The translations under genes were made by a program, and so were the position numbers. Under the pieces are notes generated by a model. The model had not been told where the DNA came from. It did no database searches and saw only the letters and a program-made list of their open reading frames with translations. From Methylocystis sp. (GTDB taxonomy: Bacteria > Pseudomonadota > Alphaproteobacteria > Rhizobiales > Beijerinckiaceae), in assembly GCA_022843525.1 (NCBI GenBank), contig JALHNR010000015.1:1-24283 (forward strand): DNA of 24,283 nucleotides. Reading direction: 5' to 3'. Below are positions 2,947 through 18,689 of this stretch, in pieces (positions within the stretch are counted from its first letter, which is position 1; each line of letters opens with the position of its first letter).

Positions 2947-2987
2947 CGGCATTGTCCCCGGTTCTCCGCTCGAAGGAGTGTGATGCG

Positions 2988-3965: not shown

Positions 3966-3968
3966 TCA

Positions 3969-5834
3969 ATGACGAACGGGGGAGTTAAAGGCATGAACCA
4001 CGCAACAATCATGAACCGCGTATCCTTTCTGACGTTGGCCGTGGCGACGACCTCGCTCGCTGCGTCGCTGTCGGCGCAGGCGAAAGACGCCGTGAAATCT
4101 GACGACGTTATCATCAGCCGCCCCGGCGTCCTACCGTCGGCCGTGCTGGAGATGACCGACGAGCCCGGCAAATGGTTCAAGGATCCCAAGAGCGGCGGCT
4201 CGCTCGTTGTGGTGAAGCCTGGCGAGGCGGTGCTCATCAAGATGACGGACACCAATACGGATCACACCATCACCAGTCTTGCCTGGCAGCCGGGCGCGGA
4301 CAAATTCCCGGTCGATCAGGAGAAGCCGTCGAACGCCAGCGTCACGCAGACCTTCGACAAACCGGGGCTCTATGTCTTCACCTGCAAGGTTCATCCCTAC
4401 ATGTTCGGCGCCGTTGTCGTCGACGATCCGAAGACGGAAGGGCTGGACATCGGCGGCGAATTGCAGCTCGTGACCGGCGCCAAAGTTCCGACGACAAGCG
4501 ACATCGCCAAGAAGCTGCTGCGCACCTTCTTCGTCGCCACGACGCCGGCGCTATGGCGCGACTATCGGCAGCCGAAGTGGGAGGTGAAGCTTCCCGATCT
4601 CGGACTCAATCTCGGCGGCGCGCAGATCAATCTGAGCGCGCTCAGCCTCTCGGCGCCGAACACGCTGCTGACGCCCCAGACGCCCGGCGTCGGCGAGGTC
4701 TGGGTCAACACGCAGTTTGAAGGCGTGAGCGGCAAGACGAAGTTCGGAACGGCGACGCAAATCGACGCGACGGACTGGACGCTCAAGAAAAAAGTCAAGG
4801 GCGTCGAGCAGAATATGAACAATCCCCACAATATGTGGCCCGATCCGACATATAAATACATTTATCAGACGGAATGGTTCGACAAGCGGCTGACCACCTT
4901 TGACCGCGAGAGCGGCAAAGTTCTTAACACACAGGTCGTTGGACAAAATCCGTCTCATGTGATGACGAGCCCGATAACCGGCATGCTCTATGTCGCCATC
5001 AATGGCGAGGACCGCGTGGCGAAACTGTCGCCTGGCGAATTCCCTTCGGCGATGGGCAACATTAATGTCGGCTCGCATTCCGGCCCGCACGGCCATCACC
5101 TCACCGACGACGGCAAATATATGATGACGCCGAACGCGCTGGCGGGAAGCGTTACCGTCGTTGATCTCGCGACCGAGAAAGCGACGGAAATTCCGACCGG
5201 CGGCGTTATCCCGATCGCGATCTGGAGCGACATGAACCATAAGGGCTATGCCGCCAATCTGCTCGGCACGCCCCCCGCCATGCTCTCCTCATTGACGGTG
5301 ATCGACATTGACAACAAGAAGAAGGTCAAGGACATCGACCTCGCTGCCGATTACGATCCGATCAGCGGCGCGCACAAGGGCGAAGCTTATGGCCTGCTTC
5401 CGATCCAGACCCCGGTGAGCCCTGACGGCAAATACGTCGTTACGGCGAACACGTTGAGCGCCACGGTCACGATCGTCGATGTGAAGACGGACAAGGTGGT
5501 GAAAAGCCTGCCCTGCGAAGCAGGCTGCCACGGCGTCAACTTCGGACACAAGAAGGGAGGCGGCTATTACGCCTATGTGGCGAGCAAATTCGCCAATGAC
5601 TTGATCGTTATCGACATGGATAAGCTCGAAGTTGTAGGCCGCATTCTGCTCGCGGATTCTAAGGACGGTCAGATCAACGCGCATAACGGCATGGGTGGAC
5701 AGGGCGTGTTGCCCTTGCCGATCGTCGAGCGGGGCATGCTTGCGCCCACGCTAAAACTCGCGGGAACAGGCAAGTTGAGCGCCGAAGTCGAGGGATGGCT
5801 CAAGCTTCTAACCAAGGAGCAACGCGGCAACTGA
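3969..5834 (+). CDS. Secreted fusion protein: N-terminal type-1 cupredoxin (amicyanin-like) plus C-terminal YVTN-like beta-propeller
   Basis: 621-aa ORF starting 3 nt after the MCO stop. ATG 3993, behind GGAG (3981-3984), is an alternative start. The signal-like segment is MNRVSFLTLAVATTSLAASLSAQA. The cupredoxin ligand pattern is His in TDHTITS followed by C-x2-H-x2-M in FTCKVHPYM. Propeller blades follow (LYVAIN, YMMTPN, YVVTAN, AYVASK, each followed by v-v-D turns). Confidence 0.8.
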   Translation: MTNGGVKGMNHATIMNRVSFLTLAVATTSLAASLSAQAKDAVKSDDVIISRPGVLPSAVLEMTDEPGKWFKDPKSGGSLVVVKPGEAVLIKMTDTNTDHTITSLAWQPGADKFPVDQEKPSNASVTQTFDKPGLYVFTCKVHPYMFGAVVVDDPKTEGLDIGGELQLVTGAKVPTTSDIAKKLLRTFFVATTPALWRDYRQPKWEVKLPDLGLNLGGAQINLSALSLSAPNTLLTPQTPGVGEVWVNTQFEGVSGKTKFGTATQIDATDWTLKKKVKGVEQNMNNPHNMWPDPTYKYIYQTEWFDKRLTTFDRESGKVLNTQVVGQNPSHVMTSPITGMLYVAINGEDRVAKLSPGEFPSAMGNINVGSHSGPHGHHLTDDGKYMMTPNALAGSVTVVDLATEKATEIPTGGVIPIAIWSDMNHKGYAANLLGTPPAMLSSLTVIDIDNKKKVKDIDLAADYDPISGAHKGEAYGLLPIQTPVSPDGKYVVTANTLSATVTIVDVKTDKVVKSLPCEAGCHGVNFGHKKGGGYYAYVASKFANDLIVIDMDKLEVVGRILLADSKDGQINAHNGMGGQGVLPLPIVERGMLAPTLKLAGTGKLSAEVEGWLKLLTKEQRGN

Positions 5835-5851
5835 ACCATTGCAATTCAGCT

Positions 5852-5884
5852 CCGATGGATAGCCCCGAGCAGGGCTTCCATCGG
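5852..5884 (+). terminator. Long imperfect hairpin downstream of the cupredoxin-propeller gene
   Basis: CCGATGGA-T-AGCCC [CGAGCA] GGGCT-TCCATCGG starts 18 nt after the stop codon. It has a 13-bp stem with one bulge. No U-tract follows, so terminator function is uncertain. Confidence 0.35.
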
Positions 5885-5945
5885 GGTGATCAGTTGTTAC
5901 CGCAACAGACGCAGCACTCGCCGAATAATGTTAGGAGAAACGCGA

Positions 5946-6632
5946 ATGATCGAGCGTCAAGCCAACAAGACAGAACATCTGGTTTCGGCCCATGCAGATC
6001 GATTTCGTGACGGCCCGAGTCGTTTAATGGGTTTGGACAACAACTTTAGCGGAGTCCGAAGGTCGAAGCGTACCCAGGCTGAAGCTGAAGCGGCTGTGCG
6101 GGTTCTTATCGAATGGGCAGGCGACGATCCGAACCGCGAAGGTTTGATCGATACGCCTGAGCGGGTGGCGCGTTCTTATCGCGAATTGTTCGCTGGCTAC
6201 GCCGCCGATCCTCGCGAATATCTCAAGCGCACGTTCGAAGAAGTGGGCGGTTATGACGAGCTGGTCGTATTGAAGAACATCCGCGTCGTTACTTTTTGCG
6301 AACATCACATGCTGCCGGTGATCGGACGCGCGCATGTCGGTTACCTGCCGACAAACCGGGTCGTGGGAATCTCCAAACTGGCGCGGGTCGTGCACGGATT
6401 CGCGCGTCGATTACAGATTCAGGAGAAGCTAACCGCTGAGATCGCCGAAGCCATCCAGGAAATTCTCGAGCCGCAAGGAGTAGGAGTGGTCGTCGAGGCC
6501 GAACACAGTTGCATGACCTTGCGTGGCGTGAACACGCTCGGATCCACATTGACCACTAGCCGGTTACTCGGCGTAATCCGCGACGACGCCCGCTCACGAG
6601 AGGAATTCCTCGGCATGGTGCGCCGAGCCTAG
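5946..6632 (+). CDS. folE: GTP cyclohydrolase I (type 1, FolE)
   Basis: Family motifs are present: [54 protein letters not shown] and [16 protein letters not shown] 5946 follows AGGAG (5933-5937). The ORF track opens earlier, at 5886. Confidence 0.9.
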
Positions 6633-6745
6633 AATTTGGACCAGCGGCTGACGAAAGAAGCATTGGGAGCGGAACGCCATGGAAGATGGCATTCTCTAAG
6701 TTCTCCCGCTTGTAATTTTGCCTCGACCCGAGGGACCGGCTCTAG

Positions 6746-7018
6746 ATGGAGACCGTTGCACGAGCGTTGTCGCCGATAATAGCTCGAGCCTTGAATCTGG
6801 AAGACGGGGGGTTTCCAAATCTGGAGATCCGCAACGGTGAGCTCGTTGGAACGATAGTTGCTTGTGCGGTAGAAATGCGCGCTGACCTGATCGTTATGCA
6901 GACCGATGGTCGCGATAGCGCTTTGGACTCGATCATCGGGAGCACAACCGAGCGCGTCATACACGAAGCGCCTTGCTCCCTAGATGACGTGAACCGAGAG
7001 CGTCTGTTTGGAAGGTAG
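6746..7018 (+). CDS. Universal stress protein (UspA-family) C-terminal fragment, probably truncated
   Basis: The 90-aa ORF ends with the USP C-terminal signature ADLIVMQTDGRDSALDSIIGSTTERVIHEAPCS. An in-frame TAG sits immediately upstream of the ATG. The N-terminal half of a normal USP domain of about 140 aa is missing. Confidence 0.5.
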   Translation: METVARALSPIIARALNLEDGGFPNLEIRNGELVGTIVACAVEMRADLIVMQTDGRDSALDSIIGSTTERVIHEAPCSLDDVNRERLFGR

Positions 7019-7102
7019 CGGCGACTCGGGAACTTTCACAGGGTGCTTTGCTTTTTGATGCGCAGCGCCTGCCGGTTCGCTGCTGAGTTTCAGGAGGGCG
7101 TC

Positions 7103-9409
7103 GTGGAAAGCGCGCGTAAACTCTGGATCACGCTCATCGCCCTGTTGGTGCTCTCCTTTGCCGTGCTTCTGCTCATCGGCCGGGAAATAAGCGTCAAGGC
7201 GCCGCCTTTGCCCGAGCGCGTCGTTACGGAAACAGGACGCACGGTCTATACCCGTGCTGACATCGAGCGCGGGCGTCAGGTCTGGCAGTCCATCGGCGGC
7301 ATGCAGCTCGGCTCCGTCTGGGGCCATGGCGGCTACGTCGCGCCAGACTGGACCGCCGACTGGCAGCACCGAGAACTCGTCGCCATCCTGGACGCCTGGG
7401 CGCGCCGCGAGTTCGCGGCCGGCCGCTACGCTGATCTCAGCGAGGAGCAGCAGAGTTCTCTGCGGGGACGGCTGCGCCCGATGATGAGGCGAAACACCTT
7501 CGATCCGAAAACTGGGACAATTACTGTTTCTGAGGAGCGCGCTCAGGCGATCGACCTCGTCTCGAGCCACTATGAGAGCCTGTTCGGCGACGATCCGCGC
7601 AGTGCGGAACTTCGCGAGAACTACGCAATGAAGAACGGCACTGTCGACGACGCCGAGCATCGGCGGGCGCTAGGCGCCTTCTTCTGGTGGACCGCGTGGG
7701 CCGCGACCACGGAGCGGCCGGGAAGCCACGTCACCTACACCAACAACTGGCCGAGCGAACCGCTGGTCGACAACCGCCCGCCTGCGACCACCTTCATCTG
7801 GTCTGCGTTCAGCGTGGTATTCCTGCTTGCCGGCATCGGCCTGCTCGGCTGGCACCGCGCCGTCAGTCATGCACACGGCGCCGAGACGTGCGATGTGCCC
7901 GCGCGTGATCCGATGCGCAACGTAAGGGTCACGCCGTCCATGCGCGCGACCGCCAAATATTTTTGGGTGCTTCTTGCCCTGTTTCTCGTCCAGATCCTGT
8001 TCGGCGCCATAAGCGCCCATTACCAGGTCGAGGGGCAGCTGTTTTACGGCTACCCGATGGCGGAGATCCTCCCCTATTCGATCACCCGCACCTGGCACAC
8101 GCAATTGGCCGTGCTGTGGATCGCCACCGCCTGGCTCGGCACTGGGCTCTACATGGCGCCGGCGATTTCCGGGTACGAGCCCAAGTTCCAGGCGCTCGGC
8201 GTCAATGTGCTCTGGATCTGCTTGCTGATCATTGTGGTCGGCGCCTTCGCGGGCCAATGGCTCGCGGTCATGCAACGGCTGGGATTGGAACACAATTTCT
8301 GGTTCGGGCATCAGGGCTGGGAGTATGCCGATATCGGGCGTTTCTGGCAGTGGTTCCTTTTTATCGGCCTGCTGCTGTGGCTCTCCCTCGTCGGCCGCGC
8401 CTTGTGGCCGGCGCTACTGGCAAAAACTGAGTCACGCTCGATCGTCGCTCTTTTCTTCCTCTCGACGGTCGCAATTGGCCTGTTCTACGGCGCGGGGCTG
8501 ATGTGGAACGAGCATACGCATCTGTCGATGGTCGAATATTGGCGGTGGTGGCTGGTTCACTTGTGGGTGGAAGGGTTTTTCGAGGTGTTCGCCACCGCGG
8601 TCGTCGCCTTCCTGTTCACCCGCCTCGGCCTGGTCGCAGTCAAGCCGGCAACTTCGGCGGTGCTGTTCGCGACGATCGTCTTTATGGCCGGCGGCGTGAT
8701 CGGCACGCTCCATCATCTCTATTTCGCCGGCACTCCGATGTCGGTGTTGGCGCTTGGCGCCAGTTTCTCCGCGCTCGAAGTCGTGCCGCTCGCCTATATC
8801 GGCTTCGAGGCCTATGAGCATTGGCGGTTCTGCGGCGCCACGCCCTGGATGCAGCGCTATAAATGGCCCGTGCTGTTCTTCATCGCGGTCTCCTTCTGGA
8901 ATCTGGTGGGAGCCGGTCTGTTCGGTTTCCTGATCAACCCGCCGCTCTCGCTCTATTACATGCAGGGGCTCAACCTGACACCGCTGCACGGCCACACGGC
9001 GCTGTTCGGCGTCTATGGGATGCTCGGCATCGGCCTCGTGTTGTTCTGCCTGCGCGGAATGATGCCCGAACTCGTCTGGAACGAGAAGATCCTCAGCATC
9101 AGCTTCTGGTGCTTCAACGTGGGGCTGGGGATGATGGCGTTGTTCACGCTCCTGCCGCTCGGCACGCTGCAACTCCTTGCCGCGATCAATGAAGGTTATT
9201 GGTACGCCCGCTCTGAGCAGTTCATGCAGCAGCCGATCGTCGATCTTCTGGTATGGATGCGCGTGCCGGGCGACACGGTCTTTTCGATAGGCGCATTGGC
9301 CTTCGCCTGGTTCGTTGTCAGCCTGTGGCTCCGGCCGCGCCGCCAGCCTCATGAAGTGGAGCAGGAGGACAGGGAACTGGAGGCGGGACCGGCGAAGCGT
9401 GCGGCGTGA
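7103..9409 (+). CDS. norB: Quinol-dependent single-subunit nitric oxide reductase (qNor; NorB/NorZ type)
   Basis: The N-terminal extension (KAPPLPERVV, GSVWGHGGYVAPDWTADWQHRE) is fused to a multi-TM haem-copper-oxidase core (WVEGFFEVF, HHLYFAG, LHGHTALFGVYGM). The length of about 770 aa fits qNor, and no norC is adjacent. GTG 7103 follows AGGAGG (7092-7097). The ORF track opens at GTG 7043. Confidence 0.9.
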   Translation: MESARKLWITLIALLVLSFAVLLLIGREISVKAPPLPERVVTETGRTVYTRADIERGRQVWQSIGGMQLGSVWGHGGYVAPDWTADWQHRELVAILDAWARREFAAGRYADLSEEQQSSLRGRLRPMMRRNTFDPKTGTITVSEERAQAIDLVSSHYESLFGDDPRSAELRENYAMKNGTVDDAEHRRALGAFFWWTAWAATTERPGSHVTYTNNWPSEPLVDNRPPATTFIWSAFSVVFLLAGIGLLGWHRAVSHAHGAETCDVPARDPMRNVRVTPSMRATAKYFWVLLALFLVQILFGAISAHYQVEGQLFYGYPMAEILPYSITRTWHTQLAVLWIATAWLGTGLYMAPAISGYEPKFQALGVNVLWICLLIIVVGAFAGQWLAVMQRLGLEHNFWFGHQGWEYADIGRFWQWFLFIGLLLWLSLVGRALWPALLAKTESRSIVALFFLSTVAIGLFYGAGLMWNEHTHLSMVEYWRWWLVHLWVEGFFEVFATAVVAFLFTRLGLVAVKPATSAVLFATIVFMAGGVIGTLHHLYFAGTPMSVLALGASFSALEVVPLAYIGFEAYEHWRFCGATPWMQRYKWPVLFFIAVSFWNLVGAGLFGFLINPPLSLYYMQGLNLTPLHGHTALFGVYGMLGIGLVLFCLRGMMPELVWNEKILSISFWCFNVGLGMMALFTLLPLGTLQLLAAINEGYWYARSEQFMQQPIVDLLVWMRVPGDTVFSIGALAFAWFVVSLWLRPRRQPHEVEQEDRELEAGPAKRAA

Positions 9410-9421
9410 TCCGCCACTTGC

Positions 9422-9820
9422 ATGGAAGCCTATTACTTCGAGATTCGCGCTGTCCACATCGCGGCGGCGCTCGCGAGCGGCGGCTTCTACCTTATGCGCG
9501 CGCTCGCTTTAAACTTGCTCGCCGCGTCATGGCCGCTGTCGATAGTCGCGCGGCTTGCCTCCTACTCGATCGATACCGTGCTCTTTACGGCTGCCCTCAT
9601 GCTGATGGCCGTCACGCGTCAATACCCGTTTGGTGACACTTGGCTGACCATGAAGGTCGTGGTCATGCTGCCGCTCTATATTTTCCTTGGTTACTGGGCG
9701 CTCCGAGCCAAGGCGTTCAAGTTGCGGTTGGCGGCGATGGCCGGCGCGATCGCGGCTTTTCTTTTGATTTATAGCATCGCACGCACGCACAGCCCGCGGG
9801 GCGTGTTTGCGCTTGGGTGA
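9422..9820 (+). CDS. SirB2-like small integral membrane protein
   Basis: 132 aa with four hydrophobic segments. SirB2-like features are IRAVHIAAALASGGFYLMR, SIDTVLF and PFGDTWLTMKVV. It starts 12 nt after the norB stop, so it is probably co-transcribed. Confidence 0.65.
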   Translation: MEAYYFEIRAVHIAAALASGGFYLMRALALNLLAASWPLSIVARLASYSIDTVLFTAALMLMAVTRQYPFGDTWLTMKVVVMLPLYIFLGYWALRAKAFKLRLAAMAGAIAAFLLIYSIARTHSPRGVFALG

Positions 9821-9861
9821 GAAACGTCGTCAGCTTGGTCGGCCTTGCCTCGAACCCGCCT

Positions 9862-11070
9862 TTACGTCGTTGGATGCAAGCGCTTCGTCGTCAACATCCC
9901 GAAATAGAGCAGCACGAAGAGCCCGTACGCCAAGCTCCACATGCCCCCGGCGGCGGCGATCGCAGCAAAGTAATACGCGCCCGTAAAAGGGGCGCCAATG
10001 CGCAGGATGGCCGCAAATGTTATGGCGATGTAGATCGCGGCCGTTCTCTGATCTGCGACGAGCGGGCGCCCGGTGTGGCCGCGCGTTGCACGAGTCATCA
10101 CCGCGAGCGTCATTGTTCCGATGGCGCCGACGGTGAGGGCATGCAGAGGCGCTGCAGAATCCGTGGCCCAGAATAGTTTGTTGCCGCCCATGAGCAGGAA
10201 GCCCAAGGGAACCCAGCCATATCCCAGATGCAGCACGAAGAGCATCGGTTCCGCCCGCGCGCTGACGCCGCGCCAGCGGATAAGACGTAGAAAGAGCGCC
10301 GCCCCGGCGATAATCAGGAGACCCGCCGTAGGCCCCGCGTCAGGGAACGCGGCCCAGGCGATGAGCGCCACAAGCGTCGCCGCCAGCGCGAAACGATCGA
10401 AAGCGCCGAAAGGCGCCGGCTCCACTTCAGCTGGCGAATTCTTCGCGAGCCAGTTGCGGGTGAAGCTCGGCGTGATGCGCCCCCCGATGATGGCGATGAG
10501 CATGACGAGGGTCGCGACGCCGACGCGGGCCCCGATGGCGCCCGTTGCGGCAAGGCCGATCGCTTCGAGATGCGTGAGCAAATTCCCGATAAAGAGAAGC
10601 GCAAGAGCGGCCACCATGGGCAAGTTGCGCCAGTTCCGCCCCGTGGCGATCTCGCGCGCGACAACGAAGATAAAGACCGCCGGGAAAGCGAGGTCGAGCG
10701 CCGCAGAGACGAGCGCAGGCGCACTATTTGAAGTCAGGACGGCGATGCGCCCCAGCAGCCAGAGAGCGACGAGGCCGGCGAGCGGCGCGCCTTGTAAGGG
10801 CAGTCGACCGGTCCAGTTTGGAATGGCCGTCAGCAAGAATCCCGCGACGACGGCGCCGCCAAAACCGAAGGCCATTTCATGCGCGTGCCAGAGAGAGGGC
10901 GCGAAGCGTGTCGGCAGTTCGGCCGCCGCCTCCAGATAGGCGATGGAGAGCGGCAGCCCGACAGCGGCCCAGAGCGCGGCAAAAAGGAAGAAGGGGCGGA
11001 AACCCGCTGAAAGAAAGATCGCCACAGGGTTTTGACTCGCCTGAGCGCGATATCGCGGAATTGGAGGCAT
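9862..11070 (-). CDS. nnrS: NnrS family haem/copper membrane protein (NO-stress associated)
   Basis: 402-aa polytopic membrane ORF. The N-terminus carries GFRPFFLFAALWA, WHAHEMAFGFGGAVVAGFLLTAIPNWTG and GRITPSFTRNW, typical of NnrS. It is convergent with the norB-sirB2 unit. Confidence 0.9.
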   Translation of the reverse strand: MPPIPRYRAQASQNPVAIFLSAGFRPFFLFAALWAAVGLPLSIAYLEAAAELPTRFAPSLWHAHEMAFGFGGAVVAGFLLTAIPNWTGRLPLQGAPLAGLVALWLLGRIAVLTSNSAPALVSAALDLAFPAVFIFVVAREIATGRNWRNLPMVAALALLFIGNLLTHLEAIGLAATGAIGARVGVATLVMLIAIIGGRITPSFTRNWLAKNSPAEVEPAPFGAFDRFALAATLVALIAWAAFPDAGPTAGLLIIAGAALFLRLIRWRGVSARAEPMLFVLHLGYGWVPLGFLLMGGNKLFWATDSAAPLHALTVGAIGTMTLAVMTRATRGHTGRPLVADQRTAAIYIAITFAAILRIGAPFTGAYYFAAIAAAGGMWSLAYGLFVLLYFGMLTTKRLHPTT

Positions 11071-11097
11071 CGTTGACTTCCCCTTTGGAATTGATGA
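10461..11097 (-). repeat. Left copy of a roughly 0.63-kb direct repeat (5' third of nnrS plus about 25 nt of leader)
   Basis: It aligns base-for-base by eye with 18704-19334, with roughly one mismatch per ten bases and one 3-nt indel (EAAAELP versus ETAELP). Confidence 0.85.
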
Positions 11098-11189
11098 TGG
11101 GCTGGCGCTCGGTCACTAACGCACACATCGAGCGCGCAGGTCGCGAGCCTCGCGTTAGAAGCCAGCGGAATGTCACGGAGGGGAGGGGA

Positions 11190-11490
11190 AGATCAATAGG
11201 CCTTCTCTTGCGACACCATTCCTTCTTCTACGCGGATTCCCCGCAGATTGCGAAGGCGTTGCGAGGAAAGCGTCGCGCGCCACCGGCGTGGGTTGCGCTC
11301 GGGGCGTTCCTCGCCCTTGTGACCGCGACGACATGGATATCGACGAGCTCTTCCGCGAACCGCCGCGGGCGGCTGAGCGATAGTGGCCGAATTCGGTAAC
11401 GCGATGGCCAAGCCGAACGCGCGTCACTGCCACTCGTGGTCAAATCGCGGCGCTCCCTGATCAGTGGTGCAGGATCCGTGCAACCTCATG
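11190..11490 (-). pseudogene. Nitrile hydratase accessory/activator-like gene, decayed
   Basis: The ATG (complement of 11488-11490) overlaps the alpha-subunit 3' end. It reads MRLHGSCTTDQGAPRFDHEWQ-TGA-RAFGLAIAL. This resembles the accessory-protein motif (P-x-F-D-E-P-W-Q-x-R-A-F-A-L) but carries an in-frame stop. Downstream similarity is scattered over three frames. Confidence 0.45.
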
Positions 11491-11976
11491 ATGGCGCTCC
11501 GGCCAGCGCGACAAGCATATCGACTCGGTCGTCACGAGCTCCATCAGCTGCGCCTCGGTAAAATCCTCTGTCGCTGCTGGCCTTTCAGGAATTACGAAAC
11601 ACCGCGCCGTCCCGCTGCTGTCCCACACCCTGATCTCCGTTTCCTCGGGCAGTGGACGCCAACCTCGGCGAGCACTTTCCGCGGCTCGCGGGCCGCGCGG
11701 GCGCGAAATACCGGATCGGCAATCCCAGCACCGGCCATGGGAAGCACGAGCAAAGCGAGCAGATGATCAGGTTGTGCACCTCGGGCGCGTTAGCGACGGC
11801 CCGCAGGTGCTCGCCCTCGGCGCCGGCCATTCCCTCGGGCAGGTCGAGTTTGGCAATTGCGGCCGGGGTGTCGGCCAGGAGCCGGGCCAAGAAGCCCGCG
11901 TCGGTCCACGCTCGCACGACGATCTTTCTTGCCGTTGAGCGGACGCGGTCCTGCGGATACTTGAATGGCCGCTCAT
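11461..11976 (-). pseudogene. Nitrile hydratase alpha-subunit-like gene with multiple frameshifts
   Basis: The metal-binding claw motif is IICSLCSCFPWPVLGLP (codons at 11744-11761), preceded by RKIVVRAWTDAGFLARLLADTPAAIAKL. The C-terminal sequence continues in two other frames (DPVFRARAAREPRKVLAEVGVH, then LPEETEIRVWDSSGTARCFVIPERPAATEDFTEAQLMELVTTES). The ATG overlaps the beta stop (ATGA) but is out of frame with the conserved part. Confidence 0.8.
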
Positions 11977-12673
11977 GCAGGTTCCTCCAAGTATATCTCG
12001 AACAGTTCGGCGTAAAGCGTCTGCGCGCCGGGTTCCGCGCGCGGACCCCACAATTCGGTCGGCGTGAACTCGACGATGTAGACGGGCATTGGATCGCCGA
12101 TGCCATCGCCAGTGTGCCAGAAGTAGACACAGTCGCCTTCGAGCACCTGCGCCACCGTGCCGCTCCGCCCCCGCAGATAGCCGGGCAGGCGAGTGTGCGC
12201 GCCAACTGGGACATTTGCGATCCGGACCCGCTGCCCGACGGCGAACTTCGAATGCGCGACGTCGCGCCGCGGGCTGTCGCCGTTACGTAGATATGCGATG
12301 ATCTGCTCGTCGATGGCTTCAGCCCGATCGGATCCCCTGGCCGAGCGCCGTCCGGCCTGGCCGCTTCGCCACGCAGTTAGCTTGTCCGCGAGGCTAATTC
12401 GTCCTCGCGCAGGTATCCTTGTCGACGAGGAATGGGGATGCCGCTGAGCCACTTCTCGTAGTAACGGAATTTGAAGTAGTCGAATGGATCCATCGCCTCG
12501 GCGCCAGCGCGCAGATCCGCCCATGTCCACATGTCGCGGAAGGCGGTCGGCACGTAGGCGATCGCGCAGGCCGGCACGGACGAGTCGAGATGGCCCGAGA
12601 GAGCCATCATCGCCACATAGATGCCGAATATCCGATTTCCCACTGCCTCGGCAGGCTGGTTCAGAAAAAAGGG
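11973..12673 (-). pseudogene. Nitrile hydratase beta-subunit-like gene, 5'-truncated and frameshifted
   Basis: The N-half lies in one frame (12377-12643: DPFDYFKFRYYEKWLSGI). The C-half lies in another (FAVGQRVRIANVPVGAHTRLPGYLRGRSGTVAQV...VYIVEFTPTELWGP...LYAELFEIYLEEPA). An in-frame stop at 12674-12676 removes the usual first roughly 25 residues. No start codon is available for an independent C-half. Confidence 0.75.
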
Positions 12674-12817
12674 TCAATTCGGATCTGGAGCGCTTTTCCG
12701 ACGTTGTCCAAAATAGGCTCAGAGTTGTGGAAGGCAAAGGCCGCAACACGCCGACGGTGGAATCGGAGGATCAGGGACGACGCGCGCGGAAGATGCGGAG
12801 CGGCGGCGAATGAGCGC

Positions 12818-13200
12818 ATGACGCCTAAAGAAGTTGTCGCGCTGGTTCTTCAAGGCGGCGGCGCGCTCGACGCCTATTAGGCGGGCCCGTTCGAGGCGCT
12901 CGCGGCGGGGGATATTGTCCGCAGTGGCTCGCCGGCATTTCGATCGGCGCGATCAACGCCGTGATCATTTGCCGCAATCATCCGGAAAAGCGCGTCGAGC
13001 GCCTGCGCGCCCTTTGGGAACGCGTGATAAGCAGGACGCCCCTTCCCTTCAATCTGGACGGATTCCTCGGTCCCATTTTTGCCAACGCCAGCGCAAATCC
13101 CCTAGCGACGGTTGGCGCGCCCGGTTTTTAGGCTGCGTCTACCGCCTCCGGCCCTCTTATGGCCCTATTCAGCGCCCGGCTATCCCACCTCATATCTTCC
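12818..13200 (+). pseudogene. Patatin-like phospholipase gene remnant
   Basis: It reads MTPKEVVALVLQGGGALDAY-TAG-AGPFEALAAG. It then continues in another frame as PQWLAGISIGAINAVIICRNHPEKRVERLRALWERV (G-x-S-x-G nucleophile elbow) and in a third frame as PVFRLRLPPP. It ends after about 130 codons against the convergent sigma gene. Confidence 0.75.
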
Positions 13201-13261
13201 CTTCCGAATAGTTCCATCAAGCAGACTTATGCGGCTGAGGTACGGGGCTCTCGACCCGCCG

Positions 13262-13987
13262 CTACTCTTCGCTGGCCAGCCCTTCCGCTTTACAGCGTTC
13301 GAGGACACCGGTCACGATGCGGTCGCACCGCGCGCCGGCGAAGGCGAAAACGTCGCTTAAGCCCGCGTCCATCTCCTGGGCAAGGCTTTCGCGCAACAGG
13401 CTGCTAGCTCGGAAGAAGCGCGTACGCACCGTCGCCTCGGGGATCTCCAGCGCCTCGGCGGTTTCTTCGACGCTCATCTCCTCGATCGCGCGCAGCATGA
13501 ACACCGTCCGGAAGGCCTCCGGCAGAAGGTCGATGCGCGCCTCCAAGAGCTTGCGCATCTGAACCCGCATCATCGATTGTTCTGGGCTACGCTCAGGCTC
13601 ATCGTTCAGCGCTGTCTGGGCTTCAGATTCATGGGGCGTCATGGCAGCTTCCAAAGGAATGATCTGGGCACTCTTTCGCCACAAGCGGCCGAGCGCTTCA
13701 TGGGTCGTGATCCGCACAAGCCAGGTATAGAGCTTGCTCTCGGCGCGATAGTTTCCAAGCGCGCGCCACGCCCGCAGATAGGTGTCCTGGACGACATCCT
13801 CCGCCTCCGCATCATTGTGCACGATGCTACGCGCCGTACGGAACAGAAGCTGGTTGTGCCGTCGCATGATGGCTTCGAACGCCACTCCGTCACCGTCAGC
13901 GGCGCGCGAGATCAGCTCTGCCTCCGGCGTGGTTTTCGATAAGCTATTTGCCGCCTGACGCTGAAGTGATTGCATTTGCGCCTCCAT
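13262..13987 (-). CDS. ECF-type sigma-70 family sigma factor with a short Cys-containing C-terminal extension
   Basis: Region 2 is AEDVVQDTYLRAWRALGNYRAESKLYTWLVRITTHEAL. Region 4 is LPEAFRTVFMLRAIEEMSVEETAEALEIPEATVRTRFFRA. A roughly 35-aa tail follows (DVFAFAGARCDRIVTGVLERCKAEG). ATG 13975, behind GGAGG, is an alternative start. Confidence 0.85.
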   Translation of the reverse strand: MEAQMQSLQRQAANSLSKTTPEAELISRAADGDGVAFEAIMRRHNQLLFRTARSIVHNDAEAEDVVQDTYLRAWRALGNYRAESKLYTWLVRITTHEALGRLWRKSAQIIPLEAAMTPHESEAQTALNDEPERSPEQSMMRVQMRKLLEARIDLLPEAFRTVFMLRAIEEMSVEETAEALEIPEATVRTRFFRASSLLRESLAQEMDAGLSDVFAFAGARCDRIVTGVLERCKAEGLASEE

Positions 13988-14195
13988 TCATTGAACAGGT
14001 AGGCTACCGGCGTGCCTTTGCCGGCGCTGCCGCTATAGGGATCGCGCGCGCCGCGTCTTCCGGATCGCGCAGCAATTCCATCATGCCCGCGACCATCGCG
14101 AAAGCGATCAACGCGTCGATGAGTATCACGGCTCCTTTCCGGGCGTACGGGCGATGGCGGGGCGCCGTTCCGTCGTCGCCCTTGGCGTTGTCCGA

Positions 14196-14609
14196 CTAAT
14201 GTTCGAACTTCGTTGGGAAGGCGGCGATCAAACCGTTGGTCAGGGCATCGGCCAGCATCATCATATGAGCCTCCGCCTTTCCATATTCGGCGATGCCGTT
14301 GGCATATTTGCCCTGCAAAAGCCCCGTGGCGTAGACCACAGTTGTGTCGATATGCCCCTTGAGCCTGTCGCGTACCTTGGTTTGCGGCCAGTTCTCGTTC
14401 GCCTTGGCGAGAAAATCGGCAATTTCCTGCGCGTTTGCGTAGGCGGCTGCGACGGACTTGTCGGTGGCCGGCTTGTCGCCGGCCTTGGCGGCTTTCACGA
14501 CCTCGACGGCTGCGCCGATATGCTCCTGAAGCAGCTTGGTGAGCGCGTTACCAGCTGCATCGCCATAGAAGGGCTTGATAGCGTCGCCGATATCGGGCTG
14601 GTTCTGCAT
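14196..14609 (-). CDS. Hypothetical all-alpha protein (conserved-looking, function unknown)
   Basis: 137-aa ORF ([43 protein letters not shown]...) with helical-repeat character. Its ATG shares one base with the stop of the upstream signal-peptide ORF. Confidence 0.6.
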
Positions 14610-14740
14610 CAGTCGCGCTGCATGTTAACGGAATAGGCGGCGGTCGGGCGGAAAACGGGAGTAGCCATAAGTGCGGCGGCGAAGCCCGCAAGGGCGAGGC
14701 GGCGATTAACGGCCGGGTGGAACATCTGCACGCGTGTCAT
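14609..14740 (-). CDS. 43-codon ORF encoding only a signal-peptide-like sequence (probably the detached 5' end of the 14196-14609 gene)
   Basis: The ATG (complement of 14738-14740) lies 6 nt after AAGGAGA. The peptide is [43 protein letters not shown]. Its stop overlaps the next ATG (TGATG). Confidence 0.35.
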
Positions 14741-14803
14741 GACGGTTCTCCTTGGTCGATCAGTTTGCGTAGCGGCCGGTGTGATCGACTCGATGCGGCC
14801 CCG

Positions 14804-14856
14804 TACATTCGATGCGACCCTTTCGCGCTGCGTTCCCGTTGCACGAGATTTTTTTG
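14804..14856 (-). promoter_or_regulatory. ECF (RpoE/AlgU-type) promoter-like element, copy A
   Basis: The minus strand reads TGCAACGGGAACGC-N17-TCGAATGTA. GGAAC is the complement of 14832-14836 and TCGAA the complement of 14808-14812. This puts the -10 about 65 nt upstream of ATG 14740. A second copy lies 277 bp away. Confidence 0.5.
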
Positions 14857-14952
14857 GGGGAAAAGAGAAAGCTTCCGAGCAGGTCGAGCGGCAGAGTACG
14901 GTCAACTCTAAAACATCCTGCGACAACACAAGCGCTGGATCGTAAACGGGCT

Positions 14953-14983
14953 GCGGAGGCGCTAAAACTCATAGCGCCTCCGC
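14953..14983 (-). terminator. Perfect 11-bp-stem hairpin between the two promoter-like copies
   Basis: GCGGAGGCGCT [9-nt loop] AGCGCCTCCGC, read directly. On the minus strand it is followed by AGCCCGTTTACG, which is only a weak U-run. Confidence 0.35.
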
Positions 14984-15080
14984 TATCGCACCAGCGTGAA
15001 TTTACGGGGGTTCCCGACGGTACGATATTTCTGTACAGAGCGGTAGCTGCCGCTCAGTTTTTCTCCGCACTCGCGCCCTG

Positions 15081-15131
15081 TATATTAGATGCGACCATTC
15101 CGCGCTGCGTTCCCGATGCAGGAATATTTTT
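15081..15131 (-). promoter_or_regulatory. ECF (RpoE/AlgU-type) promoter-like element, copy B
   Basis: The minus strand reads TGCATCGGGAACGC-N17-TCTAATATA. GGAAC is the complement of 15109-15113 and TCTAA the complement of 15085-15089. It matches copy A at roughly four of five positions over about 52 nt. Confidence 0.45.
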
Positions 15132-15231
15132 GGCTTTAGGCGTGTGGCCGGGTTTGTTCGCTTGGGCGCGAGCATCGAGGCGTTGCTCGAAGCTCTGGCG
15201 TCGAAGCGCTGCCAATGCTGCGAGCGGCGGA

Positions 15232-15759
15232 CTACGGATAGATAACGGCGCCGTCAGGTTGAATGACCGCGCCTGGAGTGAGATGGGCCGGCTCCAGACG
15301 ACCTTCCCCCAAAATGTGGAAAACGGTCTCCCCGCTGGCGATAAGATAATCGGCGACGATGCGGCGGTGGCATCGCCACCATACGGCTTCCGAACACATG
15401 ATGGTACAGCGCCGCTTGCGTCCTCTGTCCAAGAGGTGTTGGAGGCCTGCCTGAAACTGTGTAGTAAGCGCATAATCGGCGTAGTTGTGGAAACTCTCGT
15501 TCGTCCAGAAGGCGTTGACAGTCGGAGATATGCCGCGTGACCTTCCACGAAGGCCACCGAGGGCAGCCATATGTTCATAAGAGATGGCGACGGCCGCCAA
15601 GGCGCCGGGAAGCGTGTTCTTGTCAAACTGTGGATTGGTTCGTGACTTCGGAATCGTTCTGATGTCCGCGACAAGAGCGATATCGGCTTCGCGCAGCAGA
15701 CCGATGAAAGCCTCGAGGGTTCGGTTGGAATGGCCGATGGTGAAAAACGGAAGCTTCAC
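15232..15759 (-). CDS. DUF488 family protein
   Basis: 175 aa with the DUF488 pattern FTIGHSNRTLEAFIGLL, VADIRTIPKSRTNPQF and IMCSEAVWWRCHRRIVADYL. Confidence 0.8.
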   Translation of the reverse strand: MKLPFFTIGHSNRTLEAFIGLLREADIALVADIRTIPKSRTNPQFDKNTLPGALAAVAISYEHMAALGGLRGRSRGISPTVNAFWTNESFHNYADYALTTQFQAGLQHLLDRGRKRRCTIMCSEAVWWRCHRRIVADYLIASGETVFHILGEGRLEPAHLTPGAVIQPDGAVIYP

Positions 15760-15771
15760 GCGCGGCCTTCG

Positions 15772-15981
15772 TTATGCATAGTCGAGCGCGCCGCCCTTAT
15801 GCGCTGCGATGTGATCTGTCTTGTCGCTTTTGATTTCGTACTGGGGATCGTCTTTCGACGCGTGATGCGTGTGGCCTTTATAATCGAAATCTCTAATGTG
15901 AATGGCGATGATAGTCCCCGACACGCGTCCGGCCTCGGAGTTCCAGCTCACATGATCGCCGATCTTAAACTTCCGTGCCAT
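15772..15981 (-). CDS. DUF2945 (HVA/Tudor-like) small protein
   Basis: 69 aa: KFKIGDHVSWNSEAGRVSGTII ... DDPQYEIKSDKTDHIAAHKGGAL matches the DUF2945 pattern. It lies 12 nt upstream of DUF488 on the same strand. Confidence 0.75.
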   Translation of the reverse strand: MARKFKIGDHVSWNSEAGRVSGTIIAIHIRDFDYKGHTHHASKDDPQYEIKSDKTDHIAAHKGGALDYA

Positions 15982-16064
15982 CGCTGCGTCCTCCCGGTTC
16001 CAAGAAGCGCTTCTCCCAAACAGATGGATCCGAAGTCTACGCCCGGCGCCAGCACCACGGAAGC

Positions 16065-16770
16065 CTAGGTCGTCGGCAGCCGGAAGGTGAAGGTCTCCAG
16101 AAAATTCAGTTCGACGGCCGTGCTGGAATAGCTCGTGTAACCAACGGATATGTCCCGACCGATATCTAACTCGAAGTCACCGCTGCAGGTCGTGCGCACG
16201 ACGCTGCCTTCAATGGCGGGCGCCAGATGATCCCTCCGTCCACCATACGCTCAAGATGGTGAAAAACCGGATAGCCCTGGACGCTTCCGCCACTCGCGGC
16301 GGTGTAGGTGTCTAGCCCGAGCACGAGCGCGTACGGACCGTGTCGCCGGCGAGCCGCAACTGGCTGACCCGCCTGAGCGAGGCGCTTGGGTAACCCGGAC
16401 GTTGGAAGGCAGCACAACGCCCTGATTGCTGCTGGCCTCGCGAATGGTGAATGCCTGCCGCAGCGTACCCATCGGACACAGCGCGATCCTTTGCAAAGGG
16501 GATTTCCCGGGCACCCAATCTGAATCCATTGCGCCGCGCTCCACGTCGTCGATCGCTTGCCGCGTCAGACCGTCTGGAATACGATCCAGAACGACTTGCC
16601 GACCCTGAAACAGCAGATGACGACGGGGACGAAGATGACTGCTGAATGGGACAGGTTCACGCTACGGAAATTGCCATGCTGAGGCTGATCCTGATAGCAA
16701 ACAGCCACGTTACCATTTTGCCAAGCCTTTGTATCAACCCGCCAATTCTGAATCCAACAATGGGCACGCA
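16065..16770 (-). pseudogene. Family-1 encapsulin shell protein gene, heavily frameshifted
   Basis: Encapsulin-like segments are spread over all three minus frames. They are PQHGNFRSVNLS; LTRQAIDDVERGAMDSDWVPGK; EIPFAKDRAVSDGYAAAGIH; REASSNQGVVLP; HGPYALVLGLDTYTAASGGSVQGYPVFHHLERMVDGGIIWRPP; and SGDFELDIGRDISVGYTSYSSTAVELNFLETFTFRLPTT followed by a stop. Confidence 0.7.
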
Positions 16771-17054
16771 ATTAGCCGATGAAGACGGCAAAGATGCAGC
16801 TTGCGTGATCGGTGAGCAATTTTCTGTCTTTCACCAAGGATGGCGTCCCGTCTGATGTTCTTCCTGCTACTTTCACCATTGACAGGCTTAGGTCCGACTC
16901 AGTTATCCTTGTCACGGCGATCGAGTTCGCGCTCAACCGCCTGCGGCTGATGACCCCTGCTCTACATTGTGTCGGAGTCCGTCGTTGCTCTAGTCGACAA
17001 CCGCGGATGATGTCGCGTAATACCGCCCAGTAGCGATTATAGAACGGAGCGAGG

Positions 17055-18647
17055 GTGGCGATCATGGATAGGCCGGCCCGAATGATAGGCTGGCGATTCC
17101 TGCTGCTGAATGGCGCGGCGGGGGCGGCGAATGTCGTCATGCTCTCGAACGTTCCGGGCTACACGGTGCTCGCGCCCTATGCCGCCGGCAGTCTGCAGGG
17201 CGTGACGCCGAGCTTCGGCACCTGGGCGACCACCGACCACATGGTGGGAATCGCGCTCGGCCTGCCACTGTCGCGGTGGTTCTCCGGGCGCTTCGGCGAC
17301 TATCGCGTGCTGATCGGCGCGCTCGTTGTCTACGCCATCTTCTCGCTGATGTGCGCGGCGAGCGAAACCATCTGGTTTTTCGCGCCGATGCGCTTTCTCC
17401 TCGGACTTGCCGGCGGCGTCGCCCTTCCGCTCGCCCAATCCGTGACGCTTGCGCAATATCCGGATCACCAGCGCACGCTCGGCGTCGGCTTCTGGGGCGT
17501 CATGAGCATGGCGCCCTTCACCATCGGCGTATTCATGGGCGGCTTCTGGGCCGAATATTTCGACTGGCGCTGGCTATTTTATTCCAACGTCTTGGTCGTG
17601 ATGCCCGTCGCGGCGATCATCGCCGCGCTGTTCTACCGGCGCGGCTTTCAGCGCCGCATGACGCGCTTCGATACGATCGGCTTCATTCTGCTCGCCGCGG
17701 TGCTGCTCGGCGTGCAGACGATTCTCAACATGGGCAATGATTTCGACTGGTTCGCGGAGCCTCTCCTCGGATGGCTGCTGCTCGTCGTGCTGCTGGCGCT
17801 GCCGATGTTCATCTTTTGGGAGTTCGGCGAACGACGGCCCGCGCTAGACCTGCGTCTGTTTCTGCATCGCAACTTCGCCATCGCGACTTTCTGCTCGATC
17901 GTCGGCTTCCTGGTGATTCAGGGCCTGCTCTCGGTGTTCATCGTGCAATTGCAGGTGCTGCTCGGCTACACGTCCTCGCTCGCCGGCATGGTCTATCTGA
18001 TCATGATTTTTCTGGCGATGGCGGCCGCGGCCGTCGTGCATGAAATCACGAGGAACGTCGACGCGCGACTGATCGTGTTCCTCAACTTCATCGGTCTCGC
18101 AGTGACCTTTGTCTGGCTCGGACAATACGACAAGAACGCCTATTTCGATGACGTCAAGACGCCGATGTTCTTTTTCGGCTTCTCGCTCGCGATGTTTTTT
18201 GCGCCGCTCGCTACCCTCGCCATGACCGGGCTCGTCGGCGAACGACTGATCCGCGCGGCGGAAGAGCTCGCGATGCTGCGCACCGTGGCCGGCGCCCTGG
18301 GCATCTCGCTGCTCGGCGTTCTCTTCTTCCGCCGAACGCCGTTCCATCAGCTCGATCTCGCCGATCATTTCGGCGGACGGCGCTTCGCCTCGCTCGACCT
18401 GCTCGCCACTTTCCTGGATCGCATGCAGGCGATGGGCATGTCGCCCACCGCCGCGCAGAGCCGCGCGGCGCAGCTCATTCGACAGCAGGCGTCGATCCTC
18501 GCGCTCAACGACGTCTTTCTGTTCGGCGCAATGGCGTTCATCCTGCTCTCGGGAGTCGTCTGGCTCGCCTATCCAAGCTACGCGTCCAAGAAGCGCAAAC
18601 AATCGCTAACACGGCTTTCCGCCGAGGAACTGATGGAGCAGCCCTGA
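17055..18647 (+). CDS. MFS transporter, DHA2 (EmrB/QacA-like, 14-TMS) family
   Basis: 530-aa ORF with about 14 hydrophobic segments. MFS motif-like loops are LSRWFSGRFGDYRVL and LGLAGGVALPLAQS. The central and C-terminal extra helices are typical of DHA2. No membrane-fusion (EmrA) partner is adjacent. Confidence 0.8.
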   Translation: MAIMDRPARMIGWRFLLLNGAAGAANVVMLSNVPGYTVLAPYAAGSLQGVTPSFGTWATTDHMVGIALGLPLSRWFSGRFGDYRVLIGALVVYAIFSLMCAASETIWFFAPMRFLLGLAGGVALPLAQSVTLAQYPDHQRTLGVGFWGVMSMAPFTIGVFMGGFWAEYFDWRWLFYSNVLVVMPVAAIIAALFYRRGFQRRMTRFDTIGFILLAAVLLGVQTILNMGNDFDWFAEPLLGWLLLVVLLALPMFIFWEFGERRPALDLRLFLHRNFAIATFCSIVGFLVIQGLLSVFIVQLQVLLGYTSSLAGMVYLIMIFLAMAAAAVVHEITRNVDARLIVFLNFIGLAVTFVWLGQYDKNAYFDDVKTPMFFFGFSLAMFFAPLATLAMTGLVGERLIRAAEELAMLRTVAGALGISLLGVLFFRRTPFHQLDLADHFGGRRFASLDLLATFLDRMQAMGMSPTAAQSRAAQLIRQQASILALNDVFLFGAMAFILLSGVVWLAYPSYASKKRKQSLTRLSAEELMEQP

Positions 18648-18689
18648 GAGACCGTTTGAGAATGGTTGCGACGGAGATAGGGGCGTGAT

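Follow-up and report, generated by a model that had tools for sequence, protein, structure and literature searches.

A decayed nitrile hydratase operon of cobalt-type lineage on plasmid-like DNA of Methylocystis

Three adjoining minus-strand reading frames in Methylocystis DNA resemble the genes of a nitrile hydratase (NHase) operon, and the question they raise is whether they still encode an enzyme, perhaps of an unusual class, or only what is left of one. The window referred to below is the whole stretch analysed, 24,283 nucleotides long. We assign its positions 11376-12653 (minus strand), with a probability of about 0.93, to a non-functional remnant of a three-gene NHase operon (beta, alpha and a small accessory gene) of the cobalt (Co)-type lineage, in Methylocystis plasmid-like DNA; nothing here can give an active enzyme. 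Going by its family, the ancestral enzyme would have converted nitriles to amides as an alpha2-beta2 protein with a Cys-X-Leu-Cys-Ser-Cys metal claw, its metal loaded by the beta-like accessory protein. The features are as follows.

11973..12653, minus strand: NHase beta-subunit pseudogene (Pfam NHase_beta_N and NHase_beta_C)
11486..11976, minus strand: NHase alpha-subunit pseudogene (Pfam NHase_alpha, in two pieces)
11744..11761, minus strand: metal-binding claw CSLCSC (codons TGC TCG CTT TGC TCG TGC, then Phe)
11376..11489, minus strand: NHase accessory-protein pseudogene (tblastn with intact accessory proteins)
12653/12654 and 11375/11376: junctions of the remnant (example junction sequence GACCCTTTTTTCTGAACCAGCCTGCCGAGGCAGTGGG)
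11071..11375, no strand: spacer separating the remnant from the start codon of nnrS, not NHase-derived
12820..13150, plus strand: patatin-like (DUF3734-type) phospholipase remnant, an N-terminal fragment divergent from the beta pseudogene

The NHase homology read by eye in the preliminary description is highly significant: the minus-strand pieces matched Pfam NHase_beta_N (1.4e-15), NHase_beta_C (5e-30) and NHase_alpha (4.7e-27 and 3.7e-14, the weakest), in agreement with tblastn using intact orthologues as queries. The gene order given there, beta, alpha and accessory on the minus strand, was also borne out, with ATGA overlaps at 11976-11973 (beta/alpha) and 11489-11486. The operon is not complete, as had been thought, since alignment to eight intact orthologous loci ends at 12653 (beta codon 25) and at 11376 (accessory codon 38). 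The end-points 11376 and 12652/12653 were constant against every intact Methylocystis-type locus spanning them, and in the six mycobacterial loci checked homology ended at 11379-11382, a few bases from 11376. Searching the truncation junctions for repeats or IS ends returned only short repeats at chance level.

Intact orthologous operons, for which a search among relatives had been suggested, do exist. They were found in Methylocystis genomes and metagenomes (loci L002-L009 and L089), agree with one another in gene order and overlaps, and encode proteins of 251, 206 and 95-96 aa; one 93%-identical locus sits in a Binataceae MAG. The closest are:

L002, Methylocystis sp. GCA_050246715.1 contig JBFWVN010000015: intact NHase operon
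L008/L089, Methylocystis sp. MAG ND1_Bin_1_1: intact NHase operon
L007, metagenome contig ERZ25039554 contig_40326: intact NHase operon

These share with the window the gene order, the ATGA overlaps and a CSLCSCF claw, at 88-91% nucleotide identity over 11376-12653, but have open frames, whereas the window copy has lost both ends and contains two stops (TAA at 12379-12377 and TGA at 11426-11424) and nine frame-breaking indels, besides one compensated five-codon scramble. This lesion map comes from a four-way alignment that includes the window, Methylocystis rosea and the intact L002 and L007. A functional member of the family needs uninterrupted full-length reading frames; none is present here, and the locus belongs to it only as a pseudogene.

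In beta, codons 25-251 of a 251-aa gene remain and the first 24 codons, start and promoter are gone, in line with the ~25 missing codons noted earlier and with tblastn coverage of residues 25-251. The single frame change reported for this gene understated the damage, which comprises three indels (a 2-bp deletion after 12438 and 1-bp deletions after 12419 and after 12338), the nonsense change GAA to TAA at 12379-12377, and the scramble at 12646-12632, where AEEWERRIF became AEAVGNRIF over five codons. Both domains are still recognizable (PF21006, N-terminal, 57.8 bits; PF02211, C-terminal, 104.3 bits). The indel-repaired translation was identical to L007 at 193 of 223 residues, with one stop at codon 117; with that stop read as in M. 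rosea it scored 196 bits against the TIGR03888 cut-off of 152.2 bits, over model positions 31-225 only.

The alpha gene, whose ATG (11976-11974) overlaps the beta stop, had been said to need at least three frame changes, and alignment to M. rosea and the intact loci mapped six indels: towards the 5' end a 1-bp deletion after 11966, a 112-bp deletion after 11944 (codons 12-49) and a 1-bp insertion at 11927, and towards the 3' end a 16-bp deletion after 11718, with loss of PYWYK, and 1-bp deletions after 11653 and 11519. It contains no nonsense codon and shares no lesion with M. rosea. The window pieces alone reached 95 and 53 bits with PF02979 (cut-off 27.2 bits), and the repaired translation was identical to L007 at 152 of 160 residues. 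By merging window and M. rosea sequence we obtained a putative ancestral alpha of 206 aa, which scored 280.1 bits with TIGR01323 (cut-off 249.85) and was equal in length to the L002, L007 and L008/L089 proteins. The suggestion that the ancestral enzyme could be reconstructed is thus sound for the predicted alpha, but redundant because intact orthologues at 93-95% protein identity to the merged sequence exist. Alpha also scored 47 bits, under the 50.9-bit cut-off, with the NHLP leader-peptide model TIGR03793, a family with known distant homology to NHase alpha; we saw no sign of a RiPP (ribosomally made modified-peptide) gene cluster.

Of the accessory gene the first 38 of 95-96 codons are left, 35 of them identical to the intact protein, and everything past 11376 is lost. 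It carries a CGA to TGA change at codon 22 and a 1-bp deletion after 11395; the TGA stands in place of the Arg codon in FD(H/Y)EWQ-R-RAF, just as a stop inside the conserved FDxxWQ-x-RAF motif had been described. Intact accessory proteins matched it by tblastn over residues 1-31 (E about 1e-16), and TIGR03889, with a cut-off of 46 bits, gave 87.1 bits for an intact orthologue and only 14.6 bits for the window fragment alone. The extent formerly drawn, from 11190, is too wide, and 11190-11375 holds no accessory gene. We considered this segment as a diverged or frameshifted 3' half of the gene, from a resemblance by eye between LRNLRGIRVEEGMVS and ALxKVIDERGLL, and rejected it: 77 accessory proteins in tblastn at E<=10 matched nothing past residue 31 and nothing in 11190-11375, and Pfam found no match in the spacer reading-frame segments (one plus-strand, three minus-strand). 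Among 72,556 plasmids, the spacer occurs in two M. rosea plasmids only.

Those plasmids, NZ_CP044330.1 (strain BRCS1) and NZ_CP034088.1 (pGW6_2, strain GW6), carry the same pseudogene block in the same place, between nnrS and an ECF sigma-factor gene. They come from UK and Korean strains, were assembled independently and differ by 1 SNP in 3.7 kb. Their block is 97.3% identical to that of the window over aligned bases and has five lesions in common with it: the two truncation junctions, the beta 2-bp deletion, the accessory TGA and the accessory 1-bp deletion. M. rosea differs from the window in retaining alpha codons 12-49 and the PYWYK codons, with only one 1-bp deletion in alpha, and in having three 1-bp indels of its own in beta. 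The short alpha N-terminus pointed out in the preliminary description is therefore real in the window but not ancestral, being the product of the 112-bp deletion of a segment that M. rosea kept. The absence of locus tags from the M. rosea CDS table was dropped as pseudogene evidence, as the table omits the intact qNor too.

Could the genes be intact in the organism and the broken frames be errors of sequencing or assembly? One-base indels in homopolymers are typical of long-read errors, and several window-specific ones are of this kind (GGG to GG after 12419, a G run after 12338, AA to AAA at 11927, CC to C after 11653); about half of the 1-bp indels lie in runs of 2-5 identical bases, so that some could be sequencing errors. 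Homopolymer error cannot, however, yield the truncation junctions, deletions of 112 bp and 16 bp or two stops derived by substitution. Repair of all 1-bp indels would still leave 24 codons and the start missing from beta, 43 codons from alpha and ~58 from the accessory gene. The five lesions are also present in two further assemblies, made independently, and hence indicate that inactivation is older than the split from M. rosea rather than an assembly error. This explanation is extremely improbable and already effectively refuted.

The remnant, then, is a dead operon, and an old one as formerly described, with five lesions common to plasmids that are now 2.7% diverged and an even codon-position spectrum. 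Private changes numbered 23 substitutions, 8 indels and the TAA in the window, and 8 substitutions and 4 indels in M. rosea. Lineage-specific substitutions fell 9/8/14 by codon position, for which uniformity was not rejected (p=0.37), in contrast to 11/9/44 between intact orthologues (p=1e-8); third versus other positions differed between the two sets (Fisher test, p=0.04). The remnant is under neutral decay, and these substitutions give no evidence of selection. The adjacent intact nnrS is only 92.2% identical to that of M. rosea and so more diverged than the remnant, which indicates that the region is mosaic and that a simple age cannot be given. As for the course of the decay, the plasmid ancestor common to the window and M. 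rosea had already lost the beta 5' end with the promoter and the accessory 3' end, and had gained the beta frameshift and the accessory nonsense codon and frameshift. In that ancestor alpha, the last gene to break, was still an open frame; later decay was independent in each lineage and deletion-biased, and is much further advanced in the window.

Some part of the remnant might nevertheless still be in use, as a protein or as a promoter or leader for nnrS, whose start lies 305 bp downstream on the same strand. A 258-aa ORF does span 11973-12749 and has beta residues from about 120 to 251, the C-terminal domain, in frame. Its N-terminal half is, however, out-of-frame beta sequence that is open only because the DNA is G+C-rich, and an extra C after 12045 breaks the ORF in M. 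rosea, so that it is not conserved. Scanning the entire window against Rfam yielded no RNA family. Taken with the neutral substitution pattern, these data make a residual use highly improbable.

With the remnant established as a decayed operon, the class of its ancestor can be considered. The CSLCSC claw reported in alpha was read at 11761-11744, in keeping with the Cys-(Thr/Ser)-Leu-Cys-Ser-Cys signature of the family. Its Ser had been taken to point to Fe-type enzymes and SCNase relatives, and the Fe-type motif is indeed CSLCSCT (PMC2770081, PMC2667541). The claw is followed here, though, by Phe; at this place the Co-type motif has Tyr, also an aromatic residue, and the Fe-type motif has Thr. 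When repaired alpha was compared to solved structures, both whole-protein and active-site-segment searches ranked Co-type structures first (1e-58 to 1e-72, against 1e-42 to 1e-47 for Fe-type and 1e-34 to 1e-36 for SCNase gamma). The best matches, nearly full length, were 2DPP, 3HHT and 1V29 (Bacillus/Geobacillus), 1IRE (Pseudonocardia thermophila) and 3QXE (Pseudomonas putida). Solved Co-type NHases share with the remnant lineage the active-site segment and a small beta-like accessory partner, but have CTLCSCY where the lineage has CSLCSCF, and the beta of the latter, at 251 aa, exceeds the 226-position model by ~25 residues. Alpha passed TIGR01323, as given above, but failed the SCNase gamma model TIGR03887 (153.4 bits against a cut-off of 291.45).

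Gene content points the same way. The accessory gene is of the small beta-like TIGR03889 kind, as in Co-type maturation, and not a COG0523 GTPase; a COG0523 (Nha3/P47K-type) activator was found neither beside those intact orthologous operons for which neighbouring genes were read nor, by Pfam scan, among the 20 largest ORFs of the window. Two Mycobacterium-type loci were read for their neighbours, and in both cbtB comes after the accessory gene. SCNase has its beta equivalent split into two genes, and ToyJKL, set apart here by its description, divides the beta function between the small subunits ToyK and ToyL, whereas in the intact orthologues one gene encodes a 251-aa beta with both the PF21006 and the PF02211 domain. 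Among the 120 best homologues the claw reads CTLCSC in 110. Thr is found in relatives at 92-93% identity, and where the window has the Ser codon TCG, L009 and mycobacterial orthologues have ACG (Thr). The Ser is, on sequence comparison, a derived single ACG to TCG change in a Methylocystis subclade inside the Co-type clade. As for a new NHase class with a short alpha, in the window copy no more than about 11 codons precede the conserved core, which reflects the lineage-specific 112-bp deletion. Descent from a Fe-type, SCNase or ToyJKL relative, or from such a class, is very unlikely. The operon lineage is best regarded as Co-type from its sequence, accessory type and neighbouring genes, with non-corrin cobalt as the predicted metal. 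Since close relatives within one Co-type-looking clade carry either Ser or Thr at this claw position, the residue alone is unfit for calling metal type.

The live Ser-claw subclade might differ from the Thr forms in metal preference or maturation. Although unlikely, this would offer a natural near-isogenic test of a residue long used to separate Fe-type from Co-type NHases, to which the window would contribute no more than one dead, dated copy. A search of the available literature returned nothing relevant on a characterised Ser-claw Co-type enzyme (T109S), or on NHase in Methylocystis or in Mycolicibacterium.

The preliminary description had also called the operon cargo, and its setting agrees. 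The window encodes ParB/KorB and aligns collinearly with a mobilizable plasmid; the live L002 copy comes immediately downstream of transposases of the Tn3 family and of ISL3; and 78 of the 80 best genome loci are from Mycobacteriaceae or Actinomycetota, at 77-84% aa identity, the named relatives outside the subclade being Mycobacteriaceae. The Mycobacteriaceae operons (for instance Mycobacterium sp. 3519A, L091, and Mycobacterium sp. ACS1612, L010) have the beta, alpha, accessory layout found here, an alpha of 206 aa and an accessory protein of 96 aa, with 77-84% alpha protein and 69-77% nucleotide identity. They differ in their Thr claw (ACG), in having cbtB after the accessory gene and a DJ-1/AraC regulator upstream, and in being chromosomal and intact. 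The operon probably entered Methylocystis as mobile cargo, by horizontal transfer from Mycobacteriaceae-like donors, a direction suggested by this distribution. The locus is evidence that a Mycobacteriaceae-type NHase operon moved into alphaproteobacterial methanotrophs, and a clean example, traceable in sister plasmids, of the stepwise, deletion-biased decay of horizontally acquired cargo, in which the flanking genes were damaged first and alpha last. The decay is nevertheless ordinary, because live copies 93-95% identical occur in related bacteria. Beyond correct annotation, as three pseudogene fragments (11376-12653) and a patatin-like fragment rather than a possible new NHase class, its significance is small.

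The patatin-like fragment has itself decayed: its 3' end is missing, and a stop codon and two or more frameshifts interrupt what is left. Derivation of the window layout by one deletion from an arrangement like that of L089, with a patatin gene 5.5 kb upstream of the intact operon, was rejected because the L089 patatin has neither nucleotide nor protein similarity to the window remnant. The frameshift-corrected translation of the latter matched PF01734 (40.4 bits, E 4.7e-10), and its DNA matched, at 60-80% identity, genes of the patatin-like or DUF3734 kind on 166 other plasmids.

Nitrile hydratase (NHase) peptides were recognisable in a three-frame translation of the minus strand at 11100-12760, spread across frames, and Pfam matches in the window to NHase_beta_N (57.8 bits, E 1.4e-15, model positions 31-95 only), NHase_beta_C (104.3 bits, E 5e-30) and NHase_alpha (two pieces, 95 and 53 bits) were all well over the curated cut-offs; the similarity that the preliminary description had read by eye is genuine and far above chance. 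Its gene order on the minus strand (beta, alpha, accessory, with overlapping stop and start signals) was confirmed, with two ATGA overlaps (11976-11973 and 11489-11486), and the metal-binding claw of alpha, CSLCSC, is encoded at 11761-11744 (-). A 258-aa ORF at 11973-12749, in which out-of-frame G+C-rich sequence is joined to the in-frame beta C-terminal domain, is an accident; the corresponding ORF is disrupted in Methylocystis rosea.

Only two of 72,556 plasmids matched window 9800-13400 (94% identity), both from M. rosea: NZ_CP044330.1 of BRCS1 (UK) and NZ_CP034088.1 of GW6 (Korea). By merging the window and M. rosea copies, gaps in one being filled from the other, we reconstructed a 206-aa alpha that scored 280 bits with TIGR01323 (cut-off 249.85 bits). 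A search of ~5.8 billion proteins returned 206-aa full-length relatives with 93-95% identity to it, some named "nitrile hydratase subunit alpha [Methylocystis sp.]", on contigs with complete operons and the same overlaps (beta 251, alpha 206, accessory 95-96 aa), whose intact accessory protein matches TIGR03889 at 87 bits (cut-off 46 bits). As a pseudogene of a well-known enzyme family the remnant is ordinary, and public genomes already contain annotated live orthologues of it.

Its limits were determined by four-way nucleotide alignment of the window, M. rosea and two intact operons, L002 (Methylocystis sp. GCA_050246715.1) and L007 (metagenome contig ERZ25039554 contig_40326), and by blastn against all fetched loci. 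In every intact locus spanning both points, homology runs from window 12653 to 11376. Because it begins at 12653, beta lacks its first 24 codons and all upstream sequence; the accessory gene ends after codon 38. No meaningful repeats at the truncation junctions and no Rfam family were found. The indel-repaired window translation is identical to L007 at 193/223 (beta), 152/160 (alpha) and 35/38 (accessory) residues. The preliminary description was largely right, with three details corrected. Its accessory gene holds as far as 11376; 11190-11375, which it had included, was matched by none of 77 accessory proteins at E<=10 and by no Pfam model, and is present only in the M. rosea plasmids. Beta has indeed lost its first codons, and carries three indels, a scramble and a TAA in place of the single frame change described. 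Alpha is short at its N-terminus in the window, as observed, through a 112-bp deletion whose 38 codons are present in M. rosea and all intact relatives.

Lesions of the NHase remnant in the window, with their status in M. rosea
12646-12632 (-): beta, compensated 5-codon scramble destroying the EEWERR motif; also in M. rosea
after 12438 (-): beta, 2-bp deletion; also in M. rosea
after 12419 (-): beta, 1-bp deletion; not in M. rosea
12379-12377 (-): beta, GAA to TAA; not in M. rosea
after 12338 (-): beta, 1-bp deletion; not in M. rosea
after 11966 (-): alpha, 1-bp deletion; not in M. rosea
after 11944 (-): alpha, 112-bp deletion, codons 12-49; not in M. rosea
11927 (-): alpha, 1-bp insertion; not in M. 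rosea
after 11718 (-): alpha, 16-bp deletion, PYWYK lost; not in M. rosea
after 11653 (-): alpha, 1-bp deletion; not in M. rosea
after 11519 (-): alpha, 1-bp deletion; not in M. rosea
11426-11424 (-): accessory, CGA to TGA, codon 22; also in M. rosea
after 11395 (-): accessory, 1-bp deletion; also in M. rosea

Assembly error, raised beforehand as an alternative, is effectively ruled out by the shared lesions, the large deletions and the TAA. Both M. rosea plasmids have both truncation junctions, the beta 2-bp deletion and, in the accessory gene, the TGA and 1-bp deletion; their assemblies, from different strains and laboratories, are 1 SNP apart in 3.7 kb and, within the NHase block, 2.7% divergent from the window. 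Since these lesions recur in independently assembled plasmids, they are inherited. The reading as cargo that was inactivated long ago is supported. Homopolymer error cannot account for the TAA and large deletions specific to the window. Of the 1-bp indels specific to it, about half, seen in the assembly alone, lie in short runs and are putative, with no effect on the pseudogene verdict.

None of the alpha lesions is common to the two lineages (one 1-bp deletion in M. rosea versus six indels in the window), and in the ancestor of both the alpha frame was still open, with beta and accessory already broken. Substitutions private to either pseudogene lineage were distributed 9/8/14 over codon positions 1, 2 and 3, in line with uniformity (p=0.37), compared to 11/9/44 between the two intact operons (p=1e-8; third versus other positions, Fisher test p=0.04). 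Substitutions common to both pseudogenes (11/14/36) keep the third-position excess, which fits divergence from before inactivation. The remnant is 97.3% identical to M. rosea, compared to 92.2% for the adjoining intact nnrS; the region is mosaic and therefore gives no absolute age.

Fe-type enzymes have the motif CSLCSCT and are tied to COG0523 activators, and Co-type enzymes have CTLCSCY and small subunit-swapping accessory proteins (PMC2770081, PMC2667541). The Ser claw had been taken as a sign of Fe-type or thiocyanate hydrolase (SCNase) affinity, which found no support. Among solved structures, repaired alpha was closest to Co-type (1e-58 to 1e-72), ahead of Fe-type (1e-42 to 1e-47) and SCNase gamma (1e-34 to 1e-36), a ranking unchanged for the active-site segment alone; the SCNase gamma model gave 153 bits against a 291-bit cut-off. 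Moreover, the accessory gene is of the small beta-like TIGR03889 class, cbtB (a putative cobalt-transporter subunit) directly follows it in 2/2 Mycobacterium-type operons with context read, and the claw is CTLCSC in 110 of the best 120 homologues (ICTLCSCF in 106) and ICSLCSCF in 10, with Thr kept in proteins at 92-93% identity. Together these findings point to the Co-type lineage. In a neighbour-joining tree the pseudogene lineage is nested in a Ser-claw Methylocystis-type group, with a Thr-claw contig as sister and mycobacterial Thr-claw operons as outgroup; the codon went from ACG to TCG, and Ser is thus a derived single-base variant that live relatives already had. The Ser claws belong to the six closest relatives and four scattered ones (P0022, P0024, P0027 and P0045 of the best 120), and Phe follows the claw in all these Thr and Ser homologues, compared to the textbook Tyr or Thr.

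Mycobacterium, Mycolicibacterium or unclassified Actinomycetota account for 78 of the best 80 genome loci, which are chromosomal and have 77-84% alpha identity; 93% is reached only by one Methylocystis and one Binataceae MAG. The intact L002 operon lies directly downstream of 1014-aa Tn3-family and 432-aa ISL3 transposases, with a Prim-Pol/AAA_25 gene close by; this arrangement (L002 2414-6869) suggests a mobile-element setting. The L007 context is unrelated, the two sharing only ~95 bp upstream and ~100 bp downstream of the operon. We infer that the operon was gained from an actinobacterial donor and would then have spread as mobile cargo, a direction of transfer read from distribution rather than from a rooted phylogeny. 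In Mycobacterium sp. 3519A (L091) and a metagenome contig (L092), a 65-aa CbtB-family gene (L091 6901-7098) overlaps the accessory end and a divergent DJ-1/PfpI-AraC regulator (L091 4195-5127) lies upstream, whereas the Methylocystis copies lack both.

Window 1-18705 is collinear with the BRCS1 plasmid (96-98% identity).

Neighbours of the remnant in the window
642-1619 and 3969-5834 (+): YncE-like propeller proteins
2952-3965 (+): multicopper oxidase
5886-6632 (+): folE
7043-9409 (+): quinol NO reductase (qNor)
9422-9820 (+): sirB2
9862-11070 (-): nnrS
13262-13987 (-): ECF sigma factor
17055-18647 (+): MFS transporter
22689-23972 (+): ParB/KorB

The remnant lies within the 2.2-kb gap between nnrS and the sigma factor gene, where long ORFs included no intact gene and gene fragments occur throughout. 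Divergent from beta is a second dead gene (~12820-13150, +), which corresponds to the N-terminal portion of a patatin-like (DUF3734-type) phospholipase. It has lost its 3' part and contains a stop codon and at least two frameshifts; its corrected translation matches PF01734 (E 4.7e-10), and its DNA resembles such genes on 166 other plasmids (60-80% identity).

The qNor gene is intact (788 aa, NorB cytochrome c-like and COX1 domains), as in M. rosea (96.8% aa identity), where it is missing from the plasmid database CDS table. Three long antisense ORFs overlapping it (6980-7660, 7670-8311, 8432-9457) have no family matches and look spurious. The nnrS/sirB2 stretch (9500-10800) is 81-97% identical to M. 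rosea per 100 bp, versus 96-100% for its flanks, including the dead NHase block, a pattern suggestive of gene conversion or allele replacement in which a second nnrS copy may have been the partner. That copy, carried by ORF 18690-19496, is truncated (18666-19310, -; residues 1-215 of 402), with 87.5% protein identity to intact NnrS. Finally, window 20913-21050 (138 bp) matches, at 81.6%, an intergenic stretch (4974-5109) of Methylocystis MAG ND1_Bin_1_1 (L089) that lies ~1.2 kb upstream of its intact NHase operon, and may represent a short repeat or mobile element.
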